A DNA stretch of 64,000 nucleotides from an uncultured Woeseiaceae bacterium (GTDB lineage: Bacteria; Pseudomonadota; Gammaproteobacteria; Steroidobacterales; Woeseiaceae). Location: positions 7,977 through 71,976 of the forward strand of contig CAZTQL010000001.1 in NCBI GenBank assembly GCA_964615665.1, in the 5' to 3' direction. This document shows positions 39,960-58,136 of this stretch, in pieces (positions within the stretch are counted from its first letter, which is position 1; the number at the start of each line of letters is the position of its first letter). The notes below the pieces were generated by a model that made no database searches, had not been told where the DNA came from, and saw only the letters and a program-made list of their open reading frames with translations. The position numbers and the translations under genes are program-made.

Positions 39960-39965
39960 CCTCGC

Positions 39966-41598: not shown

Positions 41599-41606
41599 CC
41601 TGATCG

Positions 41607-42362
41607 CTAGCTACTCTTGGCCAGAAAACGGGCACCCAGCGTACGTCGCCTGAGGTAGGCATAAACTTCCAGGAGCGGTAGTTCCTTCGGGCAAACGTCG
41701 GCGCAGGCCATCATGCCGAGACACCCAAACACGCCCTGCTCGCCGGCAACCACATCAAACCACTCGGCATCGGAACGCTGATCTCTCGGGTCCATCATGA
41801 AACGTGCAACCCGGTTCATGCCGGCGCCGGCCAGGAATTCGTCGTCAAGGTTCGCGACGCCGCAGGAGGCGACGCAGCAGCCACATTCGATGCAGCGGTC
41901 GCCTTCGTAGATCGCCTCGGCAATGTCGTCGCTCATGCGCTCCTCGGTCGCCTCAGGATCGAATGGCAGCTGTTCATGAATCCAGGCTTCGGTGCGCTCG
42001 GCCATCTCACGGAACCAGGTCCCGGTATCGACGGACAGGTCACCGATCAGCTTGAACGCCGGTAGCGGATACAGCTGGATGTTCTCCGGCAGGTCCGAGG
42101 TCAGCGTGCGGCACGCCAGCGCCGGCCGACCGTTCACCATCATGCCGCAAGATCCGCAAATGGCCGAGCGGCAGGCGAAGTCGAACTGCAACCCCGGGTC
42201 CAGCGTTTCACGGATCTTGCTGAGCGCGATATACAGCGACATGGACGGTGTTTCGTCGATCTCGAAAATGTCCGTGTGCGGTTCGGAATTTTCGTCTTCG
42301 GGGTTGTACCGAAAAATCTCGAACTTCAGTCGACGCGACGCTGTGCTGTGTTCCTGGGTCAT
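41607..42362 (-). CDS. sdhB: succinate dehydrogenase/fumarate reductase iron-sulfur subunit
   Basis: Three Fe-S cluster motifs: CRSAICGSCGMMVNG, CIECGCCVASC and CADVCP. Confidence 0.92.
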   Translation of the reverse strand: MTQEHSTASRRLKFEIFRYNPEDENSEPHTDIFEIDETPSMSLYIALSKIRETLDPGLQFDFACRSAICGSCGMMVNGRPALACRTLTSDLPENIQLYPLPAFKLIGDLSVDTGTWFREMAERTEAWIHEQLPFDPEATEERMSDDIAEAIYEGDRCIECGCCVASCGVANLDDEFLAGAGMNRVARFMMDPRDQRSDAEWFDVVAGEQGVFGCLGMMACADVCPKELPLLEVYAYLRRRTLGARFLAKSS

Positions 42363-42387
42363 TCCCTAAATCCTTTATTGCTGTCCC

Positions 42388-44340
42388 TTACTGCGAATAC
42401 GCTTGCCAGGCACCGCGTTTGAGTCGACTACCCATTTCTTCGCTGCTCGGCAGGCGACCATGCTGCGTCTGTTCGTGCACCACCGTCTCGTTGTAACTAT
42501 CGATCGACTGCTGCATTTCGATGCGCTCGTCGCTGCCGTAACCACGATGCCCCGGCGGCAGATCGATGAGACCGGTTGGCTCGTAGCTGAACGACGGTTC
42601 GCTTTCGTCCATGGCCCAACGGACCAGCGTGCGATTCAGCCACTCTTCGTCGTTTCGCAGCGGAAAGTCGCTGCGAAAATGTGCGCCCCGACTCTCTGTT
42701 CGAGCCCGCGCACCCATCGCAACGGTCATCGCCAATCGCAACATGCCTTTCAGGCGCAACGCAAAACCGAGCTCCGGATTCACTCCGGGATCCTTGCAAC
42801 GGAGCGCAGCGTTGTCGCAATCATCGAGCAAATGACCGATCTCGGCCACGGCTTCATTCAGTTCGTCGCCCGTTCGAAAGATCCCGACCTTGCCCATCAT
42901 GATTTCGCCGAGCGCGTCACGAATCTCGTACACGTTGCGGCCGCTGCCGCCGCCGCTGCGCGCCAACCAGTTCGCCGCCCGATCTTCAGCCGCTTTCAGT
43001 GCGTCAAACGCGATACCGGTATCGGCACGGAGTGACACCCCTGCGGCATGCTCAGCCACACGTCGGCCGACGATCCGCCCTGATACGAGTGTTTCAGCCA
43101 GGCTGTTGCCACCCAGCCGGTTGAAGCCGTGCATATCCCAGCAGGCCGCTTCGCCAACGGCGAACAGCCCGGCGAGCCCGTAAGCTTCGCCATCTTTATT
43201 CACGCGAATGCCGCCCATCGAATAATGCTGTGTCGGGCGTACCGGAATGAGTGCCTTGGCCGGGTTCAGTCCCGCGAAGTCACGGCAAATGTCCCAGACT
43301 TCCAGCAGCTTGGTACGCAGGTGTTTTTCACCCAGGTGGCGGATATCAAGCCACAGGTGCGGGCCATACGGCGAATCCGCGCCGTTGCCGTCACGCATCG
43401 TCTGCTGCATATGCCGCGACACGACGTCACGACTGGCGAGTTCCTGCTTGGCGGGCTCTTTCTCCACCATGAATCGATGCATGTTCTTGTCGAGCAGATA
43501 ACCGCCGTCACCGCGACAACCTTCGGTAACCAGGATGCCGCTCGGCGAAAGCGTGGTGGGATGGAACTGTACGGCTTCCATGTTGCCCATTGGCACAACG
43601 CCAGTATCAAGCGCAATCGACGCACCGGTACCTTCATTGATTGTTGCGTTGCTCGTGTACTGCCCGTAAATGCGCCCGTAGCCACCTGTCGCAATCACCG
43701 TGGCTTTGGCCAGCACAGCGAAGTGCTTGCCGGTGCGCAGGCAGCGCACCACGGCGCCGAGGCAGCGGCCGCCGTCGTGAATCAGCGCCACAGCTTCCGT
43801 GCGGTCGCGTACCGTGATACCGAGACGAACCACCTCGCTGTCAACGGCATAGAGTGCGGCGTGCCCCGTGCCTGCAGCCGCGTAACACGCGCGCCATTTG
43901 GCCGTGCCGCCAAAGTCTCGCTGCCCGATCAGCCCATCGTTCTCGAGGGCCTCATCGATCTCGACATGCTCGCCCTTGATAAAATACTGGTTCTTGCCGC
44001 CCTGCACGCGGCTCCAGGGCACGCCGAAATGAGCGAGCTCGCGCACTGCGATCGGCGCCTCGTCGGCGAAGATATTCGCGACTTCCTGGTCCGCACCCCA
44101 GTCCGAACCGCGAACGGTATCGAGGAAGTGCACCGTGGGATCATCACCTTCGGCCTTGGCGCAATTGCCGAGCGATGCCTGCATACCGCCCTGAGCAGCA
44201 CAGCTGTGGCTGCGTCGCGGTGGCACCAGGGACAGGATCAATGCTTCGTGTCCGGCGGCCGCCGCTTCGATGGCACAGCGCTCGCCGGCAAGACCCCCGC
44301 CGATGACCAGAACGTCGGTAGTAACCAGGGGACCCGTCAT
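42388..44340 (-). CDS. sdhA: succinate dehydrogenase/fumarate reductase flavoprotein subunit
   Basis: 650 aa. The FAD-binding N-terminus is DVLVIGGGLAGERCA. The covalent-FAD His context RSHSCAAQGGM is present, along with a HPT...GCRGDGG catalytic region. It is a long-form FrdA, as in type-B enzymes. Confidence 0.93.
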   Translation of the reverse strand: MTGPLVTTDVLVIGGGLAGERCAIEAAAAGHEALILSLVPPRRSHSCAAQGGMQASLGNCAKAEGDDPTVHFLDTVRGSDWGADQEVANIFADEAPIAVRELAHFGVPWSRVQGGKNQYFIKGEHVEIDEALENDGLIGQRDFGGTAKWRACYAAAGTGHAALYAVDSEVVRLGITVRDRTEAVALIHDGGRCLGAVVRCLRTGKHFAVLAKATVIATGGYGRIYGQYTSNATINEGTGASIALDTGVVPMGNMEAVQFHPTTLSPSGILVTEGCRGDGGYLLDKNMHRFMVEKEPAKQELASRDVVSRHMQQTMRDGNGADSPYGPHLWLDIRHLGEKHLRTKLLEVWDICRDFAGLNPAKALIPVRPTQHYSMGGIRVNKDGEAYGLAGLFAVGEAACWDMHGFNRLGGNSLAETLVSGRIVGRRVAEHAAGVSLRADTGIAFDALKAAEDRAANWLARSGGGSGRNVYEIRDALGEIMMGKVGIFRTGDELNEAVAEIGHLLDDCDNAALRCKDPGVNPELGFALRLKGMLRLAMTVAMGARARTESRGAHFRSDFPLRNDEEWLNRTLVRWAMDESEPSFSYEPTGLIDLPPGHRGYGSDERIEMQQSIDSYNETVVHEQTQHGRLPSSEEMGSRLKRGAWQAYSQ

Positions 44341-45119
44341 GACGCACCGCCTTCGAGCAAGAATGCCAGCGGCGGATCCATCCAGCCTGCCAGCACGATC
44401 AGCGTGACTCCGCCGAGCACGAGAACCAGCCAGAAAATGACCTGCTCAATGCGATGCATGGTCTGGCGCGACAACCAAAGGTCGGCGCCCCATTTGATCG
44501 CCAGCCGGTACAGGCCGACGCTTGCATGAAACTCGACACACAACAGCAGCACAGCGTACGGCAGCCAGAGGCCGGCGCTGACTCTTGCCGTTGATGTCGA
44601 TGACTCGATGCCGGCAATATCACCATACAGCGGCGTGAATATATCCATGCCCAGCAACACCAGGTGAAAGCTGCCAAGTACGAGCATGATCATTCCGGTG
44701 CGCACCTGCCAAATCCACAACAGCGACTCAACATGCGGCCGGAACGGCGAGTACTCGGTTCGAGTCGCTACCTTCTCGCGGCCGGACTGACTAAGCCCTT
44801 TGGCAAGCTGCAGAATCTGTTTGCGTTGGCGTAACTGCGACGGGATCTTGCGTGCAGCAAACACCGCATGTACCAGGAACAACGTAAAGATAGCAAACAC
44901 GGTCGGCTGGGCGATGTAGTAGTCCTCCAGCATCGTCGCCATCCAGTCGAAGCCACGCTCACCGGTCAGGATGGAGCCAACCAGGACAACGTGTCCCCAC
45001 ATGAACAGCGCCAGCAGTAAGCCACTACCGCCGCTGACTACCTCATAGGCCAGTTCGCGACGCGCGGCCGTCGTCGCAGTGGAGTGTGCATTTCGAACCG
45101 ACGATGCCTTGGTGTTCAT
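44337..45119 (-). CDS. sdhC: type-B single-subunit diheme cytochrome b membrane anchor of SQR/QFR
   Basis: The ATG at 45119 abuts the upstream stop at 45122. About 260 aa with five TM helices and four candidate heme-ligand His (WGHVV, LVHAV, SFHLV, EFHAS). The layout resembles the Wolinella/Bacillus/Geobacter FrdC/SdhC class. Confidence 0.8.
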   Translation of the reverse strand: MNTKASSVRNAHSTATTAARRELAYEVVSGGSGLLLALFMWGHVVLVGSILTGERGFDWMATMLEDYYIAQPTVFAIFTLFLVHAVFAARKIPSQLRQRKQILQLAKGLSQSGREKVATRTEYSPFRPHVESLLWIWQVRTGMIMLVLGSFHLVLLGMDIFTPLYGDIAGIESSTSTARVSAGLWLPYAVLLLCVEFHASVGLYRLAIKWGADLWLSRQTMHRIEQVIFWLVLVLGGVTLIVLAGWMDPPLAFLLEGGAS

Positions 45120-45121
45120 CT

Positions 45122-46525
45122 CTAGGGATTCAACTGTGTCAGGATTTCTGGATTCTCCTCGCGCTCGGCGAGGATCGAGTGGCAGGTATCGCAATCACGG
45201 GAAATCGTCTCTCTTTCCTTGGTCCGCAGTCGCTTGCCGTGGCAGCGATAACAACCGTCGGATCGTTCATGACCGATATGTTCGGGATAGGTGTTCCACC
45301 ACACTTTCATTTGCGGGAAGACGTTGACCGAATAAATATCTCCGAGTGTCACGGCGGCGGCCGATATATCGTCGGCCCTTGCGTTTGCAACGTCGGGGTA
45401 ATTTTCCTGGTAATACTGATTCAGCTCGGCCGTGATGACCTCGCGAGCTTCCTCGTGCGAGGCATATTCGGCATCGATAATTCGCAACGCTTCACGTCTC
45501 ACATAAGGCAGCGTTCTGTCGATCAGCCCATCACGAATTGCGACATCAATTTCTGAATCCGGCGCCTGATAATTATGGCTGGGCCGATTGTGACAATCGA
45601 CACAATCCATTTGCCGCCACACGCCGCCGTCTTCCGGAGCCTTTCTATCAGCATACAGCTTGACCTCGCCCTCTTCGTTGGCGTATTCGACTTCGTAAAT
45701 CTCTTCTCGCGTGTCATCTGATCGGTAGCGAATGCTGACGCCAGGATCGACATGCCAGTGTATTCCCGACGACTTCTTACCGGCCTCGCCGCCGACTCTC
45801 AACAACAGAGCCGTCGTCAACTCCGTGTTGGCCTCGTCTTCTTCGTAATGTTTCTTGATCTTCAGCTTGTCGCCCACAAAGCGAGTTGGCCAATGGCACT
45901 GCTCGCAAGTATCGCGCGCCGGGCGCAAATCATGCAGTGGTGTTGGGATCGGTCGCGGATAGAGGTCGAACGCCACTGACACCAGCTGCCAGGCACCATC
46001 CAGTTTCGACTTCACAAACCAGTCCGCACCAGGACCGATATGGCAATCGGCACACAACAACCGCGAGTGCGACGAACGTTGGAACGCCGTGTGTTCAGGT
46101 TCCATCACAGAATGGCAGGCAAGCCCACAAAACTCGACCGACTCCATTACCTCGACGCCTTTGTAGGTTGCACCGGCCACGATGACTACGTTGACCATCG
46201 TTGCACCGAGCAGTATCAGCATCCAGTTACGTGTCTTCGGCTTGTTGAGGTCGAAGATCGGCAACAACGGCATCGACTCGCCACCTGGCGACCGGCGAAT
46301 CCTGCGCCGGTATAACAACGTTCCCAGAGGAATCAGTATCAGCCCGACGACAAAGATCATCGGCAATATCAGAAACGTGATAATGCCGAGATAGGGCCCG
46401 CCCTCGAAGCCAACCTGTGTCATAAAAATCAGGCTGAAGATAAGCACCAGGGCCGCGATTGCAAGCCCGGTGCCGAACAGACTCAGACCGTTCCGGGTAA
46501 TCGACGCTAGAAAACTCTTAAACAC
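45122..46525 (-). CDS. membrane-anchored NapC/NirT-type multiheme cytochrome c (ImcH-like), 5 CXXCH plus 1 CX3CH
   Basis: 467 aa with three N-terminal TM helices. The heme sites are CGLACH (CX3CH, verified on DNA at 46112-46129), CADCH, CEQCH, CVDCH, CYRCH and CDTCH. Confidence 0.8.
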   Translation of the reverse strand: MFKSFLASITRNGLSLFGTGLAIAALVLIFSLIFMTQVGFEGGPYLGIITFLILPMIFVVGLILIPLGTLLYRRRIRRSPGGESMPLLPIFDLNKPKTRNWMLILLGATMVNVVIVAGATYKGVEVMESVEFCGLACHSVMEPEHTAFQRSSHSRLLCADCHIGPGADWFVKSKLDGAWQLVSVAFDLYPRPIPTPLHDLRPARDTCEQCHWPTRFVGDKLKIKKHYEEDEANTELTTALLLRVGGEAGKKSSGIHWHVDPGVSIRYRSDDTREEIYEVEYANEEGEVKLYADRKAPEDGGVWRQMDCVDCHNRPSHNYQAPDSEIDVAIRDGLIDRTLPYVRREALRIIDAEYASHEEAREVITAELNQYYQENYPDVANARADDISAAAVTLGDIYSVNVFPQMKVWWNTYPEHIGHERSDGCYRCHGKRLRTKERETISRDCDTCHSILAEREENPEILTQLNP

Positions 46526-46556
46526 AAATTACCCTCTGATGAGTACCTGCCCGTTT

Positions 46557-48428
46557 TCAGGGCCGGTTTTCCTGTTGCTCGGTTGGTTCATCATAAACGA
46601 CCTCGCCGCGTTCTTCTGCCCTTGAGAACGGCGGTTTACCGGTCCGCCAGGTCGTATCCATCGGATACACCGCTGGATCGAAGATGACAAAGTAGAAGTG
46701 CCAGATGAGGATAGCGAGGGTAGCCAGGATCGCCTCCAGGAAATGCAGCACGGTGGCAGCCTCGGGCACCCAGCCCGGCAGCCAGGTCAGCGTGAAGTTC
46801 TCGAACCACAACACCAGCCCCGTGAGTGCCGTGACGAAGGTACCCCATAGCGCGGCCCAGTATTCGACCTTCTCCACATAGCCGACGCGCACGGGCGCGG
46901 GTGGCTCGGGACGGCGCCCGAGGTTGTAGCCTATCCGGTGGATAAACTCCTTGAAATCGACAAGACCAGGAAGGAACGCCGCGATCTGGTGCCGAGCACT
47001 GGCACTGATTGCAAGATGGCCGAAGTGGAAGAAGCAGGCGCCCATCAGACCGACGGCCGCTATGCGATGAATCAGGCCGCGGAATTCGCCACTGCCAATC
47101 TGCACGAGCTCTGCCCACCAGCTCTCGGGGTATTTCAAAGCAAAACCGCTGACTACCAGTACCATAAAGCTCACAGCCGCTATAACGTGCGCGATCCGAA
47201 ATGGCTTCGACATGCGTTCTTTGATCATGCAGTTTTCCGGGGGCCTGCGCAGGCGCGGCGCCGGATCACGTGCCTTCTTGTTCAGATCGAGCAGGTTGTG
47301 CAACAGCATGCCGATGACCGTGACCCAGATCAGCGGGATATAAATGAGCCGGATCCAGTACGCGACAATGTTGGGTGGCTGGTCGGCCAACATGTGCACG
47401 GGGCCGAGCTCGAAACGGCTGCCCGCTCCCAGGTGACATTGGCCGCAGGTCTCCGCCAGGTTGTCCGGATGAATGTGAGAGCCGGGGTCGCTGGAAGGCA
47501 GGATGTAATGTACACCGTGACAGCTCGCACAATTCGCGACCTTTTGCACGCCTCCGCGTGCAGCAAGCCCATGGAAGCTGTCCTCATAGGAAGGGACCTG
47601 CTCAGCATCCAGTCCGTATTTCTCGCCCAGGCGCAAATCCGAATGGCAGGGGCCACAGACACGGATCGGAATGTTGGTCGCCGATACCGGTGAGCCCTCC
47701 GCGGCCACGGCCAGAATTCGATGCTCGCCATGACAATCCGTGCAGACGGGCGAGTCATCGATGCCGTTGGCGGCGGCCAGGCCATGAATACTCTGCTCGA
47801 ACTTGGCAGTGATCTCAGCATGACAGGTACCGCAGGTGCCTGGCACATTTGAACGGTGGATCGAAGAAGCAGGGTCTGCGGCCGGAAGCGGCGAGTGAGC
47901 GGAATGGCAATCGCTGCAGCCCGCGCCATGCTCGCCATTGATCACTGCGGCGGCATGCACACTGGCGGTATAGGCTTCTATCGGGCGAATCGTGCGAACG
48001 CCCGCGGGTGCCGGCTGCCCGGAGCCATGGCAGGCCCCGCAGGTCTCTCCCTGACGGCTGGCGTGTACGGGAGAGGATCGCTCAGTCGCTAGCGTCATGG
48101 CATGTATTTCGCCATGACAACTCGAACATGAGGGAAGCTCCAGGTCAGACATGCGTTGCCGGCCCTCCGATCCATGCACGCTCACACTCTGTTCGTCGAC
48201 AGCCTCCGCATGACAACCCGCACAGCCGACCGGATCGAGCCCGCGCCTGTGCCGACGTTCCCCGCCAACATGGCAATCAAGGCATTCCGTGGCGCCGTGC
48301 GGGGTGCTCTCAAAGAGCGCCACATCGACTTCGTGGCAATCGTTGCAGGGATGTTCATCCTCCTCGGCGTCGACCGTCTGAAACACGAACAGCAGGCAGG
48401 GAACCAGGATGGTTAGCAGTTTGCGCAT
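46557..48428 (-). CDS. fusion protein: periplasmic 11-heme cytochrome c plus C-terminal membrane diheme cytochrome b domain (CbcL-like)
   Basis: 623 aa with a signal peptide. The 11 CXXCH sites are CNDCH, CLDCH, CAGCH, CSSCH, CGACH, CSDCH, CGTCH, CTDCH, CGPCH, CASCH and CGQCH. About 5 TM helices follow, with conserved His (IAHVI, LIHRIAAV, LHFLEA...IWHFYF). Confidence 0.85.
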   Translation of the reverse strand: MRKLLTILVPCLLFVFQTVDAEEDEHPCNDCHEVDVALFESTPHGATECLDCHVGGERRHRRGLDPVGCAGCHAEAVDEQSVSVHGSEGRQRMSDLELPSCSSCHGEIHAMTLATERSSPVHASRQGETCGACHGSGQPAPAGVRTIRPIEAYTASVHAAAVINGEHGAGCSDCHSAHSPLPAADPASSIHRSNVPGTCGTCHAEITAKFEQSIHGLAAANGIDDSPVCTDCHGEHRILAVAAEGSPVSATNIPIRVCGPCHSDLRLGEKYGLDAEQVPSYEDSFHGLAARGGVQKVANCASCHGVHYILPSSDPGSHIHPDNLAETCGQCHLGAGSRFELGPVHMLADQPPNIVAYWIRLIYIPLIWVTVIGMLLHNLLDLNKKARDPAPRLRRPPENCMIKERMSKPFRIAHVIAAVSFMVLVVSGFALKYPESWWAELVQIGSGEFRGLIHRIAAVGLMGACFFHFGHLAISASARHQIAAFLPGLVDFKEFIHRIGYNLGRRPEPPAPVRVGYVEKVEYWAALWGTFVTALTGLVLWFENFTLTWLPGWVPEAATVLHFLEAILATLAILIWHFYFVIFDPAVYPMDTTWRTGKPPFSRAEERGEVVYDEPTEQQENRP

Positions 48429-48462
48429 TGGAATAATCTCAGGTCTTCGTTTAGCCCGACCT

Positions 48463-51318
48463 CTAACGGTAACCGAACAGCATCGTGTAAATGATCAGGC
48501 TCAGCAGAACCAGCCCGAAGGCGAGTGCCGCGAAGCCGAATATCCTCACGCCGCGTTCTTTACCCTCTGGGAAGGCTTTCACGAGATGATTCTCCAGCTC
48601 ACCGGATTTCACCATCGCTTCGTACTCGCCAGGCTTATCGTATTTCAGCTCTTCCACGGATATCCGCCCACTGAATATCACGGGATCCATGGGGAACTTG
48701 TCGGGCCGGAAGTGTGTGTTGAAGAAATGAATCGTAAATATGAAACCGACCGCGAGCAGCGCCTCGTCACTGTGGATGATCGTCGCCACGTTGACGGCCC
48801 AGCCAGGAACGATGTAGGTGAACGTTTCGGGGAACCACAGGACCAACCCTGTCGTACCAATTATGGCCACACCCCAGGCAACCGCGAAGTAGTCGAACTT
48901 CTCCCAATACGTGTAACGACCGTAACTGGGGCGGGGGCCCATGCCGAAGAACCACTTGATGGACTGGATGAACTCCTTGAGGTCGCGGCCGTTGAAAATG
49001 ATGGAATCCGGTCCGGTAATGATCTGCAACCAGGTGTGCCCCGTGGTCTTCTTGTGACGAAGCACATCGATCACGTGCGCAATGAAGACGCCGATCAACA
49101 CAACCGCACCGACGCGATGCAGGAATCCCATACTATCGAACCCGCCGAGGACCCTGGAGGTCAACTGTGCCCAGAACATATACGAAAATTTCAATGCCAT
49201 GCCCGTCAACGCCAGCGTGAAGAAGCTGAGCATCATTACGACATGCATGGTGCGCTGGTAGCGACTGAATCGACGGTAGAATTTCTGGTCTTTGTTGCGG
49301 GCAATAGCCTTATGCGCCTTCCACTCTTCGCGGTTCAGCAATAGGCGTACAACCCAGGCCAGCGTATGCAGCAGCGCAAACGACAGCGTACCGACCAGCA
49401 ACGCGGTCATGCCCCAGAAGGACCAGAACAACCACGGGTAGGTCGCGCGATCGTGGTGCGTCGCGTGTGTCAGGTAGCCGGCAAAACGCCGGTGCGATCC
49501 TTCGTGACACTGGCCACAAGTCTCAACCACGTTGTCGCGGCTAAGCCGCGAGGCAGGGTCGGCGGGACTGAGAATATCGTGCGTGCCATGACAGTCGTAA
49601 CACTTGGCAACGCCCTCTGCGCCGAGGCGCGAGACCTTGCCGTGAAACGTGTCAAAGTAGGTCTCAGTCTGGTCTTCGTGACAGCGGCCGCACTGCTCCA
49701 TCATCTCTGTGCGGAATCCCACATCTTCGGTGCGAGAGATCGTGTGCGAAGCGTGACAGTCCTCGCAGGTGGGATACTCTTTGTCGGGATCCGGGTCGTC
49801 AGACCAGTGGACGCTGGCGCGGAACGTCTCCTCTACCCCGTGGTGGCAGGTACCGCAGGTGCCAGCGATATTTTGTGGACTCACGGGGGACTCCGGATCC
49901 TCCGGAGGACGCTCGGAGTGTGCGCCATGACAATCGGCGCAGGTTGCCGACACGATGAGGCCGGCATTCAAGGCTCGACCATGAACGCTGTCTTCATAGC
50001 TGCCCACGATATCGTCCACTTTGGCGTGGATCCGGGTCGCGGCCTGTTCACCGACGCGATGACACTCTCCGCATAGCGCGGGGACGTTACGCGGATAGGT
50101 AGGCGACACGGGAAGTTCACTGCCGAGTGTGGCGTGTTTGGCATGGCAGTCCCGGCAGATCGGTGCATCCGGATCGTCTTGCGCATGCAGGGTTCCGTGC
50201 GCACTGCCCTGGTACTCGGTGACCTGTTCGGCATGGCAGATGCTGCAATCCACGGGTGACTGCACAGTTTCGCAGGCGCGTTCCTGGGCGACCGTCACAT
50301 CCGTGTGACATTGAGCGCAGGCGGTGTCTGCATGCATCGAGCCCTCGTAGGCCTGCTCGTCAACGTACAGACTGACGGTTTCTCCATCGCGAGTCATCGC
50401 CAGATCCGTCTGGCTATGGCAGGTCAGGCAATCCTTGTCGGCCAGACCGTCAGGGTAGAAAACGGCGCGAATCTTGTGTGGGGCATGGCAGTCGACGCAG
50501 GCCGGAATCTTGCCCGGATTTTCCTCCCACAGATTGCCTTCGATCACCTTGCGATGAACGCGCTCAATCTGCCCATGGCAGGTAGTGCACATCGTAGCGA
50601 CATTGTCCGGGTGGATGCTCGACCGAGGATCGGTATGCGGAAGGATGTCATGAGACGTGTGACAGGAAGTACAGACGGCTGTGACGGTGAGGCCTTGCTG
50701 GAACAGGCCCTCGCCGTGAATACTCATCGAGTAATTCTCGATGATGTTGTCCTGGGAGATCTCGTGAGTTCGCGATACGGGAGCGCCCTCGCGGTGACAA
50801 CTGCCGCAGAGCAGCGGCACGTTCATTATCGCTGTCGACGCGTCCGGATCCGAGGCTGACAGGACTTCGTGCTTGCCGTGGCAGTCGGCACAATTCGGTG
50901 CCATCGGATCGCCGTTTTTTGCGGCCGTGCCATGCAGGCTGCCGCCATGCGCTCTCGCCTGGGACTTGTGGCAATCACCACAATCGACAGGCTCCAGGTC
51001 CTCAGCGTGCCGCCGACGTTTTGACCCGGCAAGGTCCTTGTGACAATCCACACAGGCAGTACCGGCGTGCACGGAAGTGGCGCCCGCTTTCGCGGCAACA
51101 TAGACCGAAATCTCCTCATCTCCGCGGTAACCGGTAAGCTCCGGGTCGTCATGACACTTGAGGCATCTGCTGTCCTCCTGCGCCAATGCGGGCGTTCCTG
51201 CGAACCAGAGAATCGCGGTCGCCGCGACGAACCAAAAGGTTCGGCGACTACTTGGGAGGAGTCGGTGGCCGGGCGAGCGGCCACGCGAAAGACGCGCGAG
51301 GAGAGCGACCTTTGTCAT
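48463..51318 (-). CDS. fusion protein: periplasmic 19-heme cytochrome c plus C-terminal membrane diheme cytochrome b domain (CbcL-like, expanded)
   Basis: 951 aa with a signal peptide ending ALAQE and 19 CXXCH motifs. About 6 TM helices follow, with His positions matching the paralog (TMHVV, FLHRVGAV, IIHSDEA...TIHFF). Confidence 0.85.
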   Translation of the reverse strand: MTKVALLARLSRGRSPGHRLLPSSRRTFWFVAATAILWFAGTPALAQEDSRCLKCHDDPELTGYRGDEEISVYVAAKAGATSVHAGTACVDCHKDLAGSKRRRHAEDLEPVDCGDCHKSQARAHGGSLHGTAAKNGDPMAPNCADCHGKHEVLSASDPDASTAIMNVPLLCGSCHREGAPVSRTHEISQDNIIENYSMSIHGEGLFQQGLTVTAVCTSCHTSHDILPHTDPRSSIHPDNVATMCTTCHGQIERVHRKVIEGNLWEENPGKIPACVDCHAPHKIRAVFYPDGLADKDCLTCHSQTDLAMTRDGETVSLYVDEQAYEGSMHADTACAQCHTDVTVAQERACETVQSPVDCSICHAEQVTEYQGSAHGTLHAQDDPDAPICRDCHAKHATLGSELPVSPTYPRNVPALCGECHRVGEQAATRIHAKVDDIVGSYEDSVHGRALNAGLIVSATCADCHGAHSERPPEDPESPVSPQNIAGTCGTCHHGVEETFRASVHWSDDPDPDKEYPTCEDCHASHTISRTEDVGFRTEMMEQCGRCHEDQTETYFDTFHGKVSRLGAEGVAKCYDCHGTHDILSPADPASRLSRDNVVETCGQCHEGSHRRFAGYLTHATHHDRATYPWLFWSFWGMTALLVGTLSFALLHTLAWVVRLLLNREEWKAHKAIARNKDQKFYRRFSRYQRTMHVVMMLSFFTLALTGMALKFSYMFWAQLTSRVLGGFDSMGFLHRVGAVVLIGVFIAHVIDVLRHKKTTGHTWLQIITGPDSIIFNGRDLKEFIQSIKWFFGMGPRPSYGRYTYWEKFDYFAVAWGVAIIGTTGLVLWFPETFTYIVPGWAVNVATIIHSDEALLAVGFIFTIHFFNTHFRPDKFPMDPVIFSGRISVEELKYDKPGEYEAMVKSGELENHLVKAFPEGKERGVRIFGFAALAFGLVLLSLIIYTMLFGYR

Positions 51319-51330
51319 CTTTTTGTTTTT

Positions 51331-51383
51331 CCCTGATGCCAGAGTCCCTAGTTAAGGTAATAAGACACTGTTTGGTATCAGGG
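51331..51383 (-). promoter_or_regulatory. imperfect inverted repeat (11-nt arms, about 31-nt loop) in the leader of the 19-heme gene
   Basis: ccctgatgcca (51331-51341) pairs with tggtatcaggg (51373-51383) with one mismatch. On the minus-strand RNA the 3' arm overlaps the AGGGA Shine-Dalgarno-like element about 13 nt before the ATG at 51318. Confidence 0.3.
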
Positions 51384-51420
51384 ATTTCCGAGGGCGGCCT
51401 TTCGTTACCGCGCGGCGGCG

Positions 51421-51795
51421 TCAGGCGGCATACAGCGGACTGATGTCCATGTAGATCTTGTAGTGCGCGATCAATTCGCCGTCGACCTCAAAAATGTCGG
51501 TAAACGGCAGCGTAATCTCGGTACCGTCCGACCGGGTATAAGTCACCTCACCCTCGATGAGTTGCGTCGACCCATCCACGACGACCTTCGCAATAGCATG
51601 AGATAAGCCGGCGATTGTGCCGAAGAACCCGTCGACGGCCGCCGCAACGGCGTCACGTCCCTGCACAGGCGGAGCAGAACCAAAACGAAACACGGCGTCG
51701 TCGCTCAGGAAGCCGACGAACGCCGTGGTGTCTTGCCGATCAATGGCGGCAAAAACGCCGCCAGTATCAAAACTGGCGGCGGGTGCCTCTGTCAT
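51421..51795 (-). CDS. NTF2/SnoaL-like fold protein
   Basis: 124 aa with no signal peptide. The pattern (FLSDDAVFRFG...GRDAV...F..I....H, C-terminal IAHYKIYMD) is typical of SnoaL-like small proteins. The ATG overlaps the upstream stop (ATGA). Confidence 0.6.
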   Translation of the reverse strand: MTEAPAASFDTGGVFAAIDRQDTTAFVGFLSDDAVFRFGSAPPVQGRDAVAAAVDGFFGTIAGLSHAIAKVVVDGSTQLIEGEVTYTRSDGTEITLPFTDIFEVDGELIAHYKIYMDISPLYAA

Positions 51796-52403
51796 TGAAC
51801 GCTGCCGTAGTAATGAACCAAAGCTGTTACGTCATCTGCGGACAACATAGCCACTTTTTCTTTCATTTTCTTCGGTTGATCGCGCGAGCCGTCAACGAAC
51901 TGCGCCATGGTGGTTTCCAGATAGCCCATCATCTGTCCACCCATCATGCCGGCTTCGTCTTCGGCATTGGTGCCAGCATCTGAATGACACTTGTCGCAGT
52001 GCTCGTCGTGCAGAGCCTTGCCTGCGTCAACCAGACCGGCATCAAAGTCCTGTTTTACTTTCACATAGTCGAGCTCGGCGTACGCTAAAGCGATCGCGTC
52101 GATATCGTCCTCGCTCAACTCTGCCGCTATCGCGCACATCGTCGTGGCAGGTTTGCCCGTATCGCCATGCCGATATTCAGATTCCGCACAGGGCCGGCCT
52201 TCTTCCTGGTAAACATACAGCGCATCGACGTGCACGAACTCGGGAAAACCGGCTAGCGTCGGTACGTCGCTCGATTCACTGACGCCACCGGGGCCATGGC
52301 AGCTATTACAGTCAGCCATCATCGACTCTACGTCGCCTGCATTGGCGGAAGTGGCAGCGAGCGCCAGCAAGGCTGCTGCTGTGGAAAAAATTAGTCGTTT
52401 CAT
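51792..52403 (-). CDS. periplasmic diheme class-I cytochrome c (c4-like)
   Basis: The ATG at 52403 is preceded by GGAG and gives signal peptide MKRLIFSTAAALLALAATSANA. Two CXXCH motifs (CNSCH, CDKCH) sit in two domains of about 90 aa each. The upstream 36 codons of the ORF were rejected. Confidence 0.8.
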   Translation of the reverse strand: MKRLIFSTAAALLALAATSANAGDVESMMADCNSCHGPGGVSESSDVPTLAGFPEFVHVDALYVYQEEGRPCAESEYRHGDTGKPATTMCAIAAELSEDDIDAIALAYAELDYVKVKQDFDAGLVDAGKALHDEHCDKCHSDAGTNAEDEAGMMGGQMMGYLETTMAQFVDGSRDQPKKMKEKVAMLSADDVTALVHYYGSVQ

Positions 52404-52670
52404 GTCGTCTCCTCGGAGTTCCGATCTCTTGCGGGTTATTACCACGATTATCGTTGCTGCAATCTGAATACACCCTGAACGAGGGCGCGTTTCGACTGCG
52501 GGGTTTAGCATATTATCAGGCCGCCTCCAAGCGACAACCAGTAGGTAGATGCCGTGATATCATCTACAGACGTATTTGTTACAACACATACCTTGAATTT
52601 ATAACGATTCTAAACGGGGCAACTGGTTAAGAATCAATCACTTACAACATCGACCTTCTGAGGGAACGAC
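52404..52670. promoter_or_regulatory. divergent promoter/control region between the two cytochrome operons
   Basis: 267-bp, visibly AT-richer non-coding gap. A candidate sigma70-like element for mtrC is TTGTTA (52576-52581), 17 nt, TTATAA (52599-52604). The palindrome TGATATCA lies at 52555-52562. Confidence 0.4.
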
Positions 52671-54926
52671 ATGAGCCGTCCATTCGACCCCCGATCTAAA
52701 ATTTTGAGCCTTCTATGCGCATCCGCATTACTGTTCGCATGCAGTGGAGATACGGGCCCGACGGGCCCGGCCGGAGCGTCTGGTTCAACCGGTTCGACCG
52801 GACCCGGCGGATCCACCGGCTCGACAGGCGGCACCGTGTCCGCTTTGGTACCGATCCAGTCGGTGGAAAAAATCAACGTGTCGTACGACAGCGTAGCGAT
52901 TGAGGCCGGCGGCCAGGCTCCCGACATCTTAATGCGCCTGACGGACGATTTCGGCTTCGGGATCACCGGTCTGCCGGCGGCAAGCGTGGGCTTTACGTTG
53001 GCACAGCTTTCGCCAGGCCAGGACGGTGGTTCGAGCGAATGGCAGTCATACGTGACGCGCAACAGCGCCGGAATTGAGAACGCGCAGGCAACAACGGAAT
53101 CGGCCGGCGCAGGCAGCTTCACGGATAACGGCGACGGCACCTATACCTATGTCTTCGCACAGAACCTGCCCGACTATGCGGGCGGCCCCACATTCGACGC
53201 CAACAAGATTCACCGTCTCGGCGTGGAGATTCGCACCGATCGCGGCGGCTTCCTGCCCGAGAACATCCCGGCGAACAACGCACCGTTTGATTTTGTGCCG
53301 GCCGGCGGCAGCCCCGCCGATCTGGAGCAGCGACTTATTGTCAACAACGACGCCTGCAATGCCTGTCATGACAACCTCGAACTGCACGGTGAAGCGCGCT
53401 TCGATGTCGAGTATTGCGTGACCTGCCATAACCCCTACTCCGTCGATGGCGATACCGCCGACGAGCCGTGGGGCGGCTCGGTTGATATGACAGTGATGAT
53501 CCACAAGATTCACTTTGGCGTGAATCTGACCAACGGTTACCGAGTTGTTGGGTACGGTGGCTTTGAGCACGACTACTCCGACGTCGAATTTCCGCAGGAC
53601 GTACGCAACTGCACAACCTGCCACCAGGAATCGAACGACGCGGTACCGCAAGCCAGCAACTGGCGCACCGTGCAGAACCGCGCCGCCTGTGGCACCTGCC
53701 ATGACGACATCGACTGGGAAGGCGGCACGCATCCGGGTGGCTTTGTCTTCACAGACGACCTGCAATGTCAGGATTGTCACGATGACACCGCTCCGGCGAC
53801 TGAGGCTAAACTCCGGGTCTCCGAAGCGCATGCCCAGCCCAATCGCGAGGCTAGCGAACGATTCGCTTACAACATCCTGGATATCAGTGAGACCGACGTC
53901 GGAGACTTCCCGGTGATCCAGTACTCGGTCACCGACCCAACCAACGGCGACGCGCCTTACGATCTTCTAGGCGATCCGGAATGGACCGTTTGTGGCCCGG
54001 CCCGACTGGCTGTAGGCATTGCCTGGGATACGGCCGACTATCACAATAACGATAGCGGCAACGCCCCGGGCCTGGGCGTATCGATGAACGCGATCAACTG
54101 TTTCGGTGGTTCTCCTGCCGACCTCGGTGCCGGTGTGTTTAGCGTCACTTCACCGGTTGCCGTACCTGCCACCGCCGGTGGGTCGCTCGCGGTAACCATT
54201 GACGGGCATCCCGCGGTCGATATCGGCGGCACGCTCGAGCGGATCGCCGTGACCAATGCCGTGGCCTATGCGGCAATAACGGACGCCACAGCCAAGCCAC
54301 GCCGCAACGCGGTCGCCATTGAAAAGTGCGACGACTGCCATAGTCAGCTGGCGATACATGGCAATAACCGCACGGACAACATCGAGGTTTGTGTGACCTG
54401 TCATGCGCCGAATGCCACCGATGTCAACCAACGTGGCGGCGACTGCGAAACTGACCTTGGTCTCGATGATTCGTCGATTGACATGAAGTACATGATCCAT
54501 GCGATCCACGCGTCTGGGACCATTGAAGTTCCTTACGAGGTTTGCGGATTCGGCAACTCAACCCACGTGTATGACTTTGTTTACCCGGGCAAGCTGAACA
54601 ATTGCGAAGGCTGCCATGTCCCGGGCGGCTATTACCCGGTTGATCCGAGCAATGTACTTGGCACGACCGTCGATACTGGCCCGGACAAGACCACGCCAAT
54701 GGATGACAAGGTCGTATCGCCGAACTCGTCTGTCTGCTCGTCCTGTCATACGAGCACGCTTGCGGCGAATCACATGACCCAGAACGGTGGTGACTTCGAT
54801 GCGAGAAAATCCGCGGACAGCACGCTGATATCGTCCGGCGCAGAGACCTGCGAACTCTGCCACGGAGAAGGCCGTCAGTCGGATGTCAAGGTAGTGCACG
54901 GTATCGAAGCGTTCGAGTTCAACTAA
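52671..54926 (+). CDS. mtrC: OmcA/MtrC-family outer-surface decaheme cytochrome c lipoprotein
   Basis: 751 aa with lipobox LLFACSG and 10 CXXCH motifs in a 5+5 arrangement split by a heme-free region of about 180 aa. The overall layout (heme-free N-terminal domain, pentaheme, heme-free, pentaheme) matches MtrC. It is followed by mtrA and mtrB. Confidence 0.88.
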   Translation: MSRPFDPRSKILSLLCASALLFACSGDTGPTGPAGASGSTGSTGPGGSTGSTGGTVSALVPIQSVEKINVSYDSVAIEAGGQAPDILMRLTDDFGFGITGLPAASVGFTLAQLSPGQDGGSSEWQSYVTRNSAGIENAQATTESAGAGSFTDNGDGTYTYVFAQNLPDYAGGPTFDANKIHRLGVEIRTDRGGFLPENIPANNAPFDFVPAGGSPADLEQRLIVNNDACNACHDNLELHGEARFDVEYCVTCHNPYSVDGDTADEPWGGSVDMTVMIHKIHFGVNLTNGYRVVGYGGFEHDYSDVEFPQDVRNCTTCHQESNDAVPQASNWRTVQNRAACGTCHDDIDWEGGTHPGGFVFTDDLQCQDCHDDTAPATEAKLRVSEAHAQPNREASERFAYNILDISETDVGDFPVIQYSVTDPTNGDAPYDLLGDPEWTVCGPARLAVGIAWDTADYHNNDSGNAPGLGVSMNAINCFGGSPADLGAGVFSVTSPVAVPATAGGSLAVTIDGHPAVDIGGTLERIAVTNAVAYAAITDATAKPRRNAVAIEKCDDCHSQLAIHGNNRTDNIEVCVTCHAPNATDVNQRGGDCETDLGLDDSSIDMKYMIHAIHASGTIEVPYEVCGFGNSTHVYDFVYPGKLNNCEGCHVPGGYYPVDPSNVLGTTVDTGPDKTTPMDDKVVSPNSSVCSSCHTSTLAANHMTQNGGDFDARKSADSTLISSGAETCELCHGEGRQSDVKVVHGIEAFEFN

Positions 54927-55879
54927 TGGCGACATTAGTTACTCGTCGCGGCTGGCTTAGCCTGCCCGTGCTGATGATGGCTCTCGTGGCCATCGCAGCG
55001 CCGGCCACGTCGTTGGCCCAGGATGACGAAGCGCCAAGCTATAGTAAGGAAGGCGCGGACACCTGCTTCAAATGCCATGACGATCAAGTCGTGTTGGGCG
55101 TATTTCGCACCAAGCATGCGGTACCGACGGATCCAAACTCCCCGTTTGGGCACGGCCAGTTGCAGTGCGAAGCGTGCCACGGTCCTGGCGGCGACCACTC
55201 CGGGCGCGTGCGCCGCGGTAAGGAACGGCCGGTTATGGTGCGCTTTGGCTCCGATAGCGGCACGCCGGTGCCCGAGCAGAACTCATACTGCCTGGACTGT
55301 CATTTGCCCGATGCCGGGTTCGCCTGGCACGGGAGCGCTCACGACGACAACACGGTCGCCTGCGCCGACTGCCATGACAGCCACGTCGAACGTGACCCGG
55401 TCCTCGCAACAACGACTCAGGCCGAGGTTTGCTTCGACTGCCATCAGCAGCAACGCACCGCGTCGATGAAACCGTACGCGCACCCACTGCGTGACGGCAA
55501 AATGACATGCACCGGCTGCCACAACACGCATGGCGATACGACCGAGCTGCTGCTGGCCCGCACAACCACCAATCAGACCTGCTTCGACTGTCACGCAGAA
55601 AAACGCGGGCCCTACCTCTGGGAACATGCGCCTGCTGCCGAGGACTGCGGCAACTGTCACGATCCGCACGGCTCCAACCATCCGGGCATGCTGTCGAAGC
55701 GCGCTCCGCTACTCTGCCAGAGCTGCCATTCACAGGACGGCCATCCGAGCCTGCCGCAGGATGAACGTGGCCTGCCATCCGGCACGGCCTCTCGATTCCT
55801 GCTGGGTCAGAGCTGTCTCAACTGCCATGAACAGGTGCACGGATCGAACCATCCGTCCGGCACCAAGCTAATGCGCTAG
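54926..55879 (+). CDS. mtrA: MtrA/DmsE-family periplasmic decaheme cytochrome c
   Basis: 317 aa with a signal peptide and 10 CXXCH motifs at high density (CFKCH, CEACH, CLDCH, CADCH, CFDCH, CTGCH, CFDCH, CGNCH, CQSCH, CLNCH). The ATG overlaps the mtrC stop (TAATG). Confidence 0.92.
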   Translation: MATLVTRRGWLSLPVLMMALVAIAAPATSLAQDDEAPSYSKEGADTCFKCHDDQVVLGVFRTKHAVPTDPNSPFGHGQLQCEACHGPGGDHSGRVRRGKERPVMVRFGSDSGTPVPEQNSYCLDCHLPDAGFAWHGSAHDDNTVACADCHDSHVERDPVLATTTQAEVCFDCHQQQRTASMKPYAHPLRDGKMTCTGCHNTHGDTTELLLARTTTNQTCFDCHAEKRGPYLWEHAPAAEDCGNCHDPHGSNHPGMLSKRAPLLCQSCHSQDGHPSLPQDERGLPSGTASRFLLGQSCLNCHEQVHGSNHPSGTKLMR

Positions 55880-55891
55880 GAGCGTCGTGCG

Positions 55892-58012
55892 ATGTTGAAT
55901 AGAACGAACCGATTCACTCCTGCTCTCTTCGCGCTGTTGCCGCTTCTGGCGCCGGGCATTGGCATCGCCGAAGTCGACACCAGCGACTGGAAGTGTGAGT
56001 CGTGCCCGTTTGATGACGGCTACCGGGCCAATGTCAGCGCGGGCGCTACCTACGTCGGCGAGGATGGCGCTATTCGCTTCGGCAGCGCCACCGGGTATGA
56101 CGACAAGGGCGGCTACGCCAATGTCGACGGCCAGGGACGCTACGTCAGCGACGGCTACCGGCTCGACTGGACCCTCGAAGATCTTGGCCTCGACTCGCGC
56201 GTCTTCACTCTGGACGCCGGTCGTCAAGGTAGCTTCGGCGTGCACGTGGGTTATCGAGAGCTGCCCTACTGGCAATTCGATTCGACGCGGACTGTTTTCA
56301 ATTCCTCCACGTCCGACACGCTCACATTACCCTCCGACTGGGTGCCGGCAGGCCTGACCTCGGACATGACGCGGCTGTCATCGTCGCTGCGTCGACAAAA
56401 CATTGGCAGCGACCGGCAGATCATGGACATTGGGGGGGACTGGCAGCCGGCTGAGGCCTTCCGACTGTACGCCGACTTCCAACGCCAGAATCGGGATGGC
56501 ATCGACATTACCGCCGGCTCGAGCTACACGCAGGCGTCTCTGCTGCCGCGCTGGATCGATTACGAGACCGACCAGATCGACGCTGGCATCCGGTATGGCA
56601 CAGCTCGCTCAAGTCTGACGCTGGCGTATTTCGGCTCGTCTTTTACGAACCAGAACCCATCGATCACCTGGGACACGCCGTTTACCTCCGGCCCCGGCAC
56701 TGAGCAGCTGCGGGCAGCAACAGCGCCGGAAAACGAGTTCCAGCAGATCTCGCTGTCGGGTGCGTACCGCGCAACGATGTGGGACACCGTCCTTGCCTTC
56801 TCACTGGCGTCCGGCACCGGCAAACAAAACGAGACTTTCCTGCCTTACACGATCAACCCGAACGTGGGCGCGGGCGCGCTGCCGAAGAACTCTCTCGACG
56901 GCAAAGTCGACACGAGCAACTATGCGCTGACCGTAACGTCACGACCGTTTCCGAAGGCCCGGGTAAAACTCTCTTACCGCTATGACGACCGCGACAACAA
57001 GACGCCGCAGTCCGAATGGAACCGTGTCGTCGTCGACGTTTTCCAGGTCACAGATACCGAGCAGAATATACCTTACAGTTTCGAACGCTCGGCATTCTCG
57101 CTGAGTGGCGAGCTGTTGGTCTGGAAAGGCATTCGCGTTTCTGGTGGCTGGGATCGCAAAGAACTGAATCGCGATTATCAGGAGGTAGCGGAACAGACGA
57201 CTGACGCCGGCTGGGGACAGGCGAGCTGGAAACCGCTGGCGTGGCTCGACCTGCGCATTAAAGGCGGCGCGTCAGAACGTGACATTGATCGCTATAACGA
57301 AACACTTGCCGTCAGCTTCGGCCAGAACCCGCTGATGCGGAAATACAATCTGGCGTATCGCTACCGCAGCTACGGAGAGTTGAACGCGTCCATCACACCG
57401 GTTGAATCGCCGATCTCCCTCAGCACAACGGTTCTGTATGCCGACGATCGCTACAACCGATCCCAGCTGGGCATGACTGACAGCGAAGAGGTACGAGCAA
57501 CGGCTGACTTGAACTGGGCCGTCACTGACAACACCAGTTTTTTCCTGATGTACGGCTATGAAGACATCGATGCGCTGCAGCTTGGTTCCGAGCAAAACGG
57601 CTACTGGGATTGGAGCGCAAAACATGAAGACAGCTTCGACCATGTGGGCGGTGGTTTTCGCTGGCGCCAGGCCGAAGGCAAGCTCGATCTGCGCGTCGAC
57701 TTCAACCGCGGCAGTGGCAAGACGACGGTCGATCTCTTTAGTGTGAGTGGTGGAGAAAGCCGCCTGCCAGACCTGGAATCGACGCTCGACTCAGCGCGCG
57801 TCGAAGCGCGCTATCGCTGGAGCGAGCGTGTCGACGCTACGTTCGACTTGCGCTACGAGAGCTTTGAGGTTGACGACTACGCGCTGGTATCGCCCTCGAC
57901 AGTATCAACCGTGCTGACTCTGGGCGCCGAGCCCTACGACTACAAGGTATGGGCGGTGGGTTTCGGGATACGCTACAGCTTTGGCGGCGGTGAGATTACG
58001 TTAGCCGAATAG
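55892..58012 (+). CDS. mtrB: MtrB/PioB-family outer-membrane beta-barrel porin
   Basis: 706 aa with a signal peptide and the N-terminal CxxC motif (DWKCESCPF) known from Shewanella MtrB. The rest has an alternating beta-strand pattern rich in Y/W/D/R, with a C-terminal aromatic residue four positions from the end (...YSFGGGEITLAE). Confidence 0.88.
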   Translation: MLNRTNRFTPALFALLPLLAPGIGIAEVDTSDWKCESCPFDDGYRANVSAGATYVGEDGAIRFGSATGYDDKGGYANVDGQGRYVSDGYRLDWTLEDLGLDSRVFTLDAGRQGSFGVHVGYRELPYWQFDSTRTVFNSSTSDTLTLPSDWVPAGLTSDMTRLSSSLRRQNIGSDRQIMDIGGDWQPAEAFRLYADFQRQNRDGIDITAGSSYTQASLLPRWIDYETDQIDAGIRYGTARSSLTLAYFGSSFTNQNPSITWDTPFTSGPGTEQLRAATAPENEFQQISLSGAYRATMWDTVLAFSLASGTGKQNETFLPYTINPNVGAGALPKNSLDGKVDTSNYALTVTSRPFPKARVKLSYRYDDRDNKTPQSEWNRVVVDVFQVTDTEQNIPYSFERSAFSLSGELLVWKGIRVSGGWDRKELNRDYQEVAEQTTDAGWGQASWKPLAWLDLRIKGGASERDIDRYNETLAVSFGQNPLMRKYNLAYRYRSYGELNASITPVESPISLSTTVLYADDRYNRSQLGMTDSEEVRATADLNWAVTDNTSFFLMYGYEDIDALQLGSEQNGYWDWSAKHEDSFDHVGGGFRWRQAEGKLDLRVDFNRGSGKTTVDLFSVSGGESRLPDLESTLDSARVEARYRWSERVDATFDLRYESFEVDDYALVSPSTVSTVLTLGAEPYDYKVWAVGFGIRYSFGGGEITLAE

Positions 58013-58136
58013 GCCGGGCTTCGAACCCCGCACCTGAATCTACCGGGCCCCTTTCCTTTCAATATCTTGCGACGGCGGCGATTGGTGGAGTTTTACGGAA
58101 GATCAGTCCTTTCACTAACAGCATTCGGAGAAACAA

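Follow-up and report, generated by a model that had tools for sequence, protein, structure and literature searches.

A conserved Woeseiaceae gene island of MtrCAB, CbcL- and ImcH-type cytochromes and a diheme-b fumarate reductase

Gene content of the island

This analysis concerns a 64-kb stretch of DNA from a marine-sediment Woeseiaceae bacterium (assembly GCA_964615665.1, contig CAZTQL010000001.1), referred to here as the window, in which all coordinates are given. At positions 41607-58012 the window carries an island of 11 genes, three on the plus strand and eight on the minus strand, in which a predicted Shewanella-type MtrCAB conduit faces a string of multiheme cytochromes and a predicted fumarate reductase, FrdCAB. 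Gene coordinates and heme motifs were checked by open reading frame (ORF) listing and translation, and all genes were found where expected. The island is a real, family-conserved variant of the known modular Mtr design and not a new kind of system, and it probably functions as a chromosomal anaerobic-respiration island, moving electrons from the inner-membrane quinol pool to extracellular acceptors.

The original prediction for this interval gave the same gene inventory on both strands, and each gene was recovered by translation; its sole descriptive error was to count nine minus-strand genes where there are eight. Its total of 58 c-heme motifs was reproduced on recounting (2+19+11+6+10+10), as was the 267-bp control region shared by the two divergent units, which lies between the pdsA-like gene and mtrC (52404-52670) and is bounded by start codons with Shine-Dalgarno-like support. 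The minus-strand genes are, as had been described, separated by no more than 102 bp, several with overlapping stop and start codons, the gaps from the pdsA-like gene to frdB being -4, 102, 34, 31, 2, -4 and 25 bp. On the plus strand mtrC, mtrA and mtrB are contiguous, with a 1-nt overlap followed by a 12-bp gap. Shine-Dalgarno-like sequences back the start codons and the stop/start overlaps indicate translational coupling along the gene string. The motif cysteine and histidine residues are invariant or nearly so across 24-81 homologs, so the heme-motif pattern is not due to chance.

The three plus-strand products all passed the profile models proposed for checking them (TIGR03507, TIGR03508 and TIGR03509), each scoring above its curated family cut-off, and are predicted from these matches to form a Shewanella-type MtrCAB. 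The mtrC gene (52671-54926), preceded by a Shine-Dalgarno-like GAGGGA, encodes a predicted surface decaheme lipoprotein of the OmcA/MtrC family with 10 CXXCH motifs and a lipobox (LFAC, lipidated Cys24); it scores 479.7 bits against TIGR03507 (cut-off 209.3) and matches MtrF in the Protein Data Bank (PDB; 3PMQ) with an E value of 2.4e-49. Straight after the lipidated cysteine, at residues ~26-55 (52746-52835), there are ten Gly-X-Y triplets resembling a collagen-like tether, and the relatives keep both the lipobox and the G-X-Y linker, with similar or longer (GPA)n-type runs. The mtrA gene (54926-55879) encodes the periplasmic, porin-inserted decaheme cytochrome, with 10 CXXCH motifs, 282.4 bits against TIGR03508 (cut-off 192.2) and an E value of 5.2e-82 to chain A of 6R2Q, the solved S. 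baltica Mtr complex. The outer-membrane beta-barrel sheath is encoded by mtrB (55892-58012), which scores 377.3 bits against TIGR03509 (cut-off 240) and 433.8 bits against Pfam MtrB_PioB, and matches 6R2Q chain B (E 9.5e-73). Its N-terminal CXXC motif (C34-E-S-C37; DTSDWKCESCPFD) is kept in relatives, and such a motif is a signature reported for metal-reducing Gammaproteobacteria (Wee 2014, as cited in PMC12175506).

Two large minus-strand fusions, one with 19 c-hemes (48463-51318) and one with 11 (46557-48428), are assigned by architecture as paralogous CbcL/MtrH/MtoC-type proteins, a family defined by 3-23 hemes, a length of up to 1034 amino acids and approximately six transmembrane (TM) helices (Zhong & Shi, PMC6295460). 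Both have a signal peptide, a periplasmic domain in which all heme motifs are CXXCH and conserved distal histidines number about one per heme, and a Ni_hydr_CYTB membrane domain (41.8 bits in the 11-heme protein); their 19 and 11 motifs thus fall inside the family range. The cytochrome b domains share 33% identity (E 6e-33). The heme domain of the 19-heme protein matches DmsE/MtrA-like modules and is a tandem duplication of an 8-heme unit (internal match E 1e-54), and 11 hemes are present in 30 of 38 homologs of the smaller paralog. Five TM helices were called in the 19-heme protein by hydropathy scan, and a sixth (~842-866) was assigned by inspection only; the same scan called five in the 11-heme protein, one of which is the signal peptide, and another (~520) was likewise assigned by inspection only. 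The heme-b ligands of E. coli FdnI (H18/H57/H155/H169) align with invariant histidines in both, namely H692/734/849/864 in the 19-heme protein and H414/454/562/577 in the 11-heme protein. An AlphaFold2 model of the 19-heme protein (pLDDT 74, pTM 0.48) had FdnI (1KQF_C, TMt 0.74) as its best solved match in Foldseek, a match that is clear only for the cytochrome b domain. A sequence search of the PDB returned no solved relative of CbcL or ImcH.

The next minus-strand gene (45122-46525) encodes a predicted ImcH-type inner-membrane cytochrome. The published signature of this family is three N-terminal TM helices, an adjoining atypical CX3CH, five to nine CXXCH motifs and NapC/NirT homology (PMC6295460), and every one of these elements is present: TM helices at 16-34, 47-65 and 102-120, a CX3CH at residue 133 with a conserved M141, and CXXCH motifs at 158, 207, 308, 425 and 445. 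The CX3CH is invariant in 24 homologs. The protein matches Pfam Cytochrom_NNT (PF03264, 35.6 bits, cut-off 24.1), NrfH (TIGR03153, E 3.5e-12) and, in the PDB, NrfH 2J7A_C (E 0.0023); no ImcH model of NCBIfam or Pfam was hit. Its relatives number more than 7,900, the closest being named 'NapC/NirT family cytochrome c [Woeseiaceae bacterium]'. The gene had been described as a 3-TM NapC/NirT-type hexaheme, and while the six motifs, the three helices and the NapC/NirT homology all stand, the defining features are those of ImcH. All other ORFs in the 64-kb window have at most one heme motif, and the proposed lack of a CymA-like tetraheme therefore holds there.

The gene divergent from mtrC, both here and in relatives, encodes a periplasmic diheme cytochrome c (51792-52403, minus strand) with a signal peptide, two CXXCH motifs and no TM helix. 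Although its ORF extends to 52511, the start was placed at 52403, where an ATG with a GGAG Shine-Dalgarno sequence is followed by the signal peptide. It matches NCBIfam NF049874 over 190 of 198 profile positions (169.3 bits, E 8.8e-50), missing the cut-off of 330. The pdsA-like gene adjoins mtrC in five related loci where mtrC lies inside the fetched flank (L002, L003, L004, L006 and L007), and in a further relative, L086; in some related genomes it is duplicated. Its stop codon overlaps, through ATGA and with likely translational coupling, the start of a gene for a SnoaL_2/NTF2-like protein (51421-51795, minus strand; Pfam SnoaL_2, 65.3 bits). This protein has no signal peptide and would be a cytoplasmic protein amid a string of envelope cytochromes; its gene is present in six of eight Woeseiaceae-like loci and in L086. 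A 10-bp G+C-rich hairpin followed by TTTTT (51756-51781, minus strand) lies barely within the SnoaL-like gene, right after the pdsA-like stop, and might attenuate transcription downstream of the shuttle gene, the terminator count overall being not above that of shuffled sequences.

The minus-strand string ends in frdC (44337-45119), frdA (42388-44340) and frdB (41607-42362), in agreement with the type-B sdh/frdCAB that had been proposed there. The flavoprotein FrdA (NF006383, 938.4 bits, cut-off 663) and the iron-sulfur subunit FrdB (NF010071, 368.5 bits, cut-off 264) exceed the cut-offs of fumarate-reductase equivalog models. FrdC, the diheme cytochrome b anchor, scores 115.7 bits against NF010072, under its cut-off of 187, and matches the anchor of the Wolinella quinol:fumarate reductase (2BS2_C, E 5.3e-17), with the equivalents of His44, His143, His182 and Glu180 aligned and the fourth TM histidine present in TM2. 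FrdCAB is therefore predicted to be a Wolinella-type, single-anchor (type-B) quinol:fumarate reductase or succinate:quinone reductase with a diheme b subunit.

Consensus scans of 41000-58800 for promoters and terminators gave fewer sites than shuffled controls, and no promoter match in the divergent intergenic region exceeded shuffle expectation. A search for FNR/CRP-like palindromes gave chance-level matches only, and comparison of the region among seven genomes by alignment and k-mers gave no shared motif; therefore no regulator can be proposed.

Conservation and genomic setting

Relatives of the 19-heme protein were sought by scanning one genome per species, and at least 593 were found. The closest (74-81% identity) are from metagenome-assembled genomes (MAGs) of Woeseiaceae and unclassified Gammaproteobacteria from marine sediments. 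In Woeseiaceae MAGs the island gene set recurs, with mtrBAC divergent from the pdsA-like, SnoaL, 19-heme, 11-heme, ImcH-like and frdCAB genes, and several of them share a chromosomal slot, which lies between apbE/CBS and orf347/M20 peptidase/flavin reductase. This co-location at one site is kept across MAGs whose proteins differ by 20-50% in sequence. There is no G+C anomaly over the window, no tRNA gene or Rfam family was found within it, and it shows no sign of a recent mobile element. Given the shared slot, the plain G+C content and the lack of tRNA or mobile-element signs, the island is taken to be an inherited family trait, not a recent mosaic.

Outside the family, 72 loci with a 19-heme-type gene were compared using 10-kb flanks. 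The 11-heme paralog was found in 37 and an ImcH-like gene in 18, and in 48 of the 72 an 11-13-heme paralog and/or an ImcH-like gene lies beside a 19-23-heme gene. The inner-membrane trio is therefore a pre-existing cassette common to Acidobacteriota, Gemmatimonadota, Bacteroidota/Ignavibacteriota and others. None of the 72 loci has mtrC, mtrB, pdsA or frd within 10 kb, and three have an MtrA-like decaheme; among the loci compared, linkage of frd to 19-heme-type genes is confined to Woeseiaceae. The synteny survey that had been proposed thus had a divided outcome, the arrangement recurring, with rearrangements, in Woeseiaceae MAGs and lacking mtrC, mtrB and frd in the loci of other phyla. The island looks to be made of three modules, a gammaproteobacterial pdsA-mtrCAB, the inner-membrane cytochrome cassette and frdCAB, that were then vertically inherited within the family.

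Variants of the fusion genes were seen among these relatives. In three loci of Bacteroidota/Ignavibacteriota (L071:10001-12853, L075:10001-12859 and L079:6368-9217) the 19-heme gene has one or more stop codons at about residue 647-667, precisely where the heme-c domain meets the cytochrome-b domain, so the lineages concerned have a split, two-gene version of the fusion. A metagenomic protein from outside the window (P0121; 1636 amino acids, 32 CXXCH) resembles a 13-heme bc unit and a 19-heme bc unit in one chain; if this is not an artefact of gene calling, it hints that the 19- and 11-heme paralogs work together in one complex.

The related Woeseiaceae locus L086, on a 3.2-Mb contig, has a radical-SAM gene inside its island (L086:6894-7865). 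After its frdB there are genes (L086:15152-19382) for a small cytochrome, a 4Fe-4S protein and an NrfD-like protein, a trio that is like an NrfBCD/NetBCD quinol dehydrogenase, together with a 562-amino-acid protein of no recognised type. In L086 frdA and frdB are each split, an effect that probably stems from long-read errors.

Immediately upstream of the island in the window (32743-40985, plus strand) are a menA-like gene, the nqrA-F operon for a Na+-translocating NADH:quinone reductase, and apbE, the last of which also flanks the island in relatives. The menA-like gene (32743-34089) encodes a predicted 1,4-dihydroxy-2-naphthoate prenyltransferase (TIGR00751, 120.2 bits, cut-off 102.15), its true start probably lying downstream of the ORF start. 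It is 7.5 kb upstream of the island, and another menA-like gene flanks apbE beside the island in L086. Further away are hemN, for an oxygen-independent coproporphyrinogen oxidase (11487-12908, plus strand), genes for the alpha and beta subunits of a Na+-pumping oxaloacetate decarboxylase (22753-25673, minus strand) and, at the window end, the hydrogenase maturation genes hypE and hypF (62038-64000, minus strand), all of which have an anaerobic or sodium-energetics flavour. On the other side of the island, 124 bp past mtrB and on the same strand, lies an EncFtn-like (encapsulated-ferritin-type) gene (58137-58424) with no encapsulin shell gene adjoining; it occurs in the near-identical contigs L081 and L083 and is absent from L004.

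Relation to known Mtr systems

Papers of 2012 and 2018 reported CbcL homologs (MtrH, MtoC) next to mtrAB(C) in Rhodoferax, Dechloromonas, Gallionella and others (Shi 2012; PMC6295460). The mtr cluster of Rhodoferax ferrireducens (with mtrH and cymA) and the mtoC of the Dechloromonas and Gallionella mtoAB clusters resemble the island in having a CbcL-family fusion beside mtrAB(C), which there, as here, is the presumed inner-membrane quinol/quinone partner (PMC6295460). The island differs from them in having two such paralogs, with 19 and 11 hemes, and an ImcH-type protein but no CymA, in the PdsA-like protein and FrdCAB encoded in the same string, and in its host, a gammaproteobacterial sediment family. 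Group 4 mtrCAB clusters are often flanked by frdABCD (PMC8805035, 2022), and those of Betaproteobacteria, which have mtoC/mtoD and frdABCD, are like the island in that a fumarate reductase and a CbcL-type gene accompany mtrCAB. Their enzyme is, however, the four-subunit FrdABCD and their carrier MtoD, whereas the island has a three-subunit diheme-b FrdCAB of the Wolinella/Geobacter type and a PdsA-like carrier.

The position of pdsA next to mtrCAB is typical of groups 2 and 3 of Baker et al. (PMC8805035). The pdsA-mtrCAB clusters of Aeromonas and Vibrio, with NetBCD or CymA (Conley 2018, as cited in PMC8805035), share with the island a diheme PdsA-type shuttle beside mtrCAB and a quinol dehydrogenase that is not the Shewanella CymA, and the related locus L086 carries its NrfBCD/NetBCD-like trio in the island. 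In contrast to these clusters, the PdsA of the island scores half the family cut-off and its predicted quinol dehydrogenases are of the CbcL and ImcH types. A parallel for the latter is found in Geobacter sulfurreducens, which has ImcH, CbcL, CbcBA and FrdCAB (PMC5322298, PMC9129911), and thus several alternative multiheme quinol oxidases of the same two architectures as here, a menaquinone-type chain and a diheme-b FrdCAB. In Geobacter the genes are scattered, the carriers are Ppc trihemes, the conduits are non-Mtr porin-cytochrome complexes and CbcL has 9 hemes; in the island the genes are clustered with MtrCAB and the three proteins have 19, 11 and 6 hemes.

The original prediction of a Shewanella/Geobacter hybrid is therefore right as to content, MtrCAB being present together with CbcL- and ImcH-type proteins, and not new in principle, as such combinations had been published in 2012, 2018 and 2022. 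A 2018 survey found no mtrAB or mtoAB adjacent to imcH (PMC6295460), and in the searchable literature we found no ImcH-type gene adjacent to mtr genes, with or without two CbcL-type paralogs, no three-subunit diheme-b Frd in an mtr context, and no report of the exact combination of MtrCAB, two CbcL-type proteins, an ImcH-type protein, a PdsA-like protein and FrdCAB. The cross-phylum cassette of 19-heme, 11-heme and ImcH genes was likewise not found there, and is unmentioned in the peat-cytochrome preprint and the Carthagonibacter paper. The presence of mtrCAB in sediment Woeseiaceae has been reported by marker-gene MAG surveys of 2024-2026 (PMC11442690, PMC12175321).

Predicted electron route and its alternatives

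If the island serves respiration to the cell exterior, quinol, probably menaquinol, would be oxidised by any of three multi-heme dehydrogenases: the two CbcL/MtrH-type proteins, in which an FdnI-like diheme cytochrome b is fused with 19 or 11 bis-His c-hemes that form a chain in the periplasm, and the ImcH-type 3-TM six-heme protein with its NrfH-like first heme. Electrons would pass to the soluble diheme PdsA-like cytochrome, or possibly direct from the long 19-heme chain, and onward to MtrA in the MtrB barrel, to the lipoprotein MtrC and finally to oxidants outside the cell, such as Fe(III)/Mn(IV) oxides. FrdCAB would tie the fumarate/succinate couple to the same quinone pool, serving as another anaerobic outlet or, as has been suggested for Geobacter, as a succinate dehydrogenase linked to menaquinone, and is probably co-expressed with the rest of the island under anoxia. 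The order of the path, the quinone type and any potential-specific roles we infer from the parts. A menaquinol-fed chain, as in Shewanella and Geobacter, fits the menA-like genes found upstream in the window and beside the island in L086. The outward direction is favoured because MtrC is present, the CXXC of MtrB is conserved and ImcH homologs are known from reducers only (PMC6295460).

Several points weigh against this interpretation. The island is known from its genes, which do not reveal in which direction electrons flow, and there are lithotrophs among the Woeseiaceae. Menaquinone is proposed on the strength of one menA-like gene and family precedent, and a potential-specific use of the three quinol oxidases would be pure analogy with Geobacter. 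The two fusions and the hexaheme were assigned to the CbcL and ImcH types through published architecture and signature, not by alignment to the G. sulfurreducens proteins, and the sub-cut-off score of the diheme cytochrome makes it a distant PdsA relative, not a strict member. The CbcL-family MtoC also occurs in Fe(II) oxidisers (PMC6295460). Since other phyla carry the inner-membrane cassette without Mtr, it is not intrinsically Mtr-specific. Within the family four related genomes have the 11-heme gene in inverted orientation, one has a relocated ImcH-like gene, and L086 is without a true 19-heme gene. Because of this inversion and relocation a single obligatory operon is not conserved; for the minus-strand string of the window an operon is plausible, and the quinol oxidases and fumarate reductase that had been described as fused in one operon stand together as a gene cluster.

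The direction of flow is the point on which the strongest alternative differs. Reduced minerals, Fe(II) or partner cells could supply electrons to MtrCAB, in an inward or bidirectional manner, with the CbcL-type protein acting as a quinone reductase like MtoC; the sink would be FrdCAB, or else oxidases or denitrification encoded elsewhere in the genome. We regard this as unlikely, and it has several points in its favour: MtoC is found in the mto clusters of Fe(II) oxidisers and its family is deemed reversible (PMC6295460), Baker et al. suggested that frd beside mtr could serve extracellular electron transfer both ways (PMC8805035), two paralogous bc fusions could work in opposite directions, and hypE and hypF at the window end suggest lithotrophic potential. 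Set against these are MtrC and the CXXC motif of MtrB, which go with reducers, the restriction of ImcH homologs to reducers, and a pdsA-mtrCAB arrangement that is like the Aeromonas/Vibrio-type pdsA clusters of metal reducers in Baker et al. (PMC8805035).

It is distinctly unlikely that the island is a neighbourhood with no dedicated pathway, in which the inner-membrane cytochromes pass electrons to other acceptors, periplasmic or soluble, FrdCAB is a plain anaerobic fumarate reductase or menaquinone-linked succinate dehydrogenase and the clustering comes only from co-regulation of anaerobic respiratory genes: the cassette in 72 loci of other phyla without MtrC or MtrB within 10 kb, the variable gene order and orientation among Woeseiaceae, the lack of a conserved motif in the intergenic region and the restriction of frd linkage to the family would fit it, but co-location at one site has outlasted large protein divergence, translation appears to be coupled along the string, the window holds no other quinol dehydrogenase for Mtr, and inner-membrane cytochromes beside published mtr clusters (CymA, NetBCD) are functional partners (PMC8805035).

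Outward transfer from the quinol pool is thus the interpretation we prefer, and a more ambitious form of it can be drawn, although we hold it to be improbable. The island would then be a self-contained menaquinone chain grafted on an otherwise aerobic or denitrifying sediment bacterium, in which ~40 hemes form a near-continuous wire linking the quinol site with the cell surface, with potential-tuned alternatives beside it. The 19-heme chain of MtrA/NrfB-like modules, if linear like MtrA, would be about twice the length of MtrA and could cross most of the periplasm, passing electrons straight to MtrA, while the 11-heme paralog and the ImcH-type protein would be the potential-tuned alternatives. 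If this were true, the presence of the cassette in at least 593 species-level genomes of many phyla would mean that a major way of respiring minerals in sediments and soils has gone unrecognised.

Current models are not overturned by the island, which extends the known modularity of Mtr systems in a manner that is unsurprising to a specialist and ecologically relevant. It provides an example of an ImcH-type gene linked to mtr genes, and it draws notice to the 19-heme/11-heme/ImcH cassette common to uncultured Acidobacteriota, Gemmatimonadota and others. Woeseiaceae are common in marine sediments, and iron reduction has been credited to them by MAG surveys from mtrCAB marker hits only. The island shows what could sit behind the conduit in this family, namely a PdsA-like shuttle, a diheme-b fumarate reductase and three inner-membrane cytochromes, two of them CbcL-type and one ImcH-type, and so turns a marker-gene claim for the Woeseiaceae into a full pathway that can be tested.

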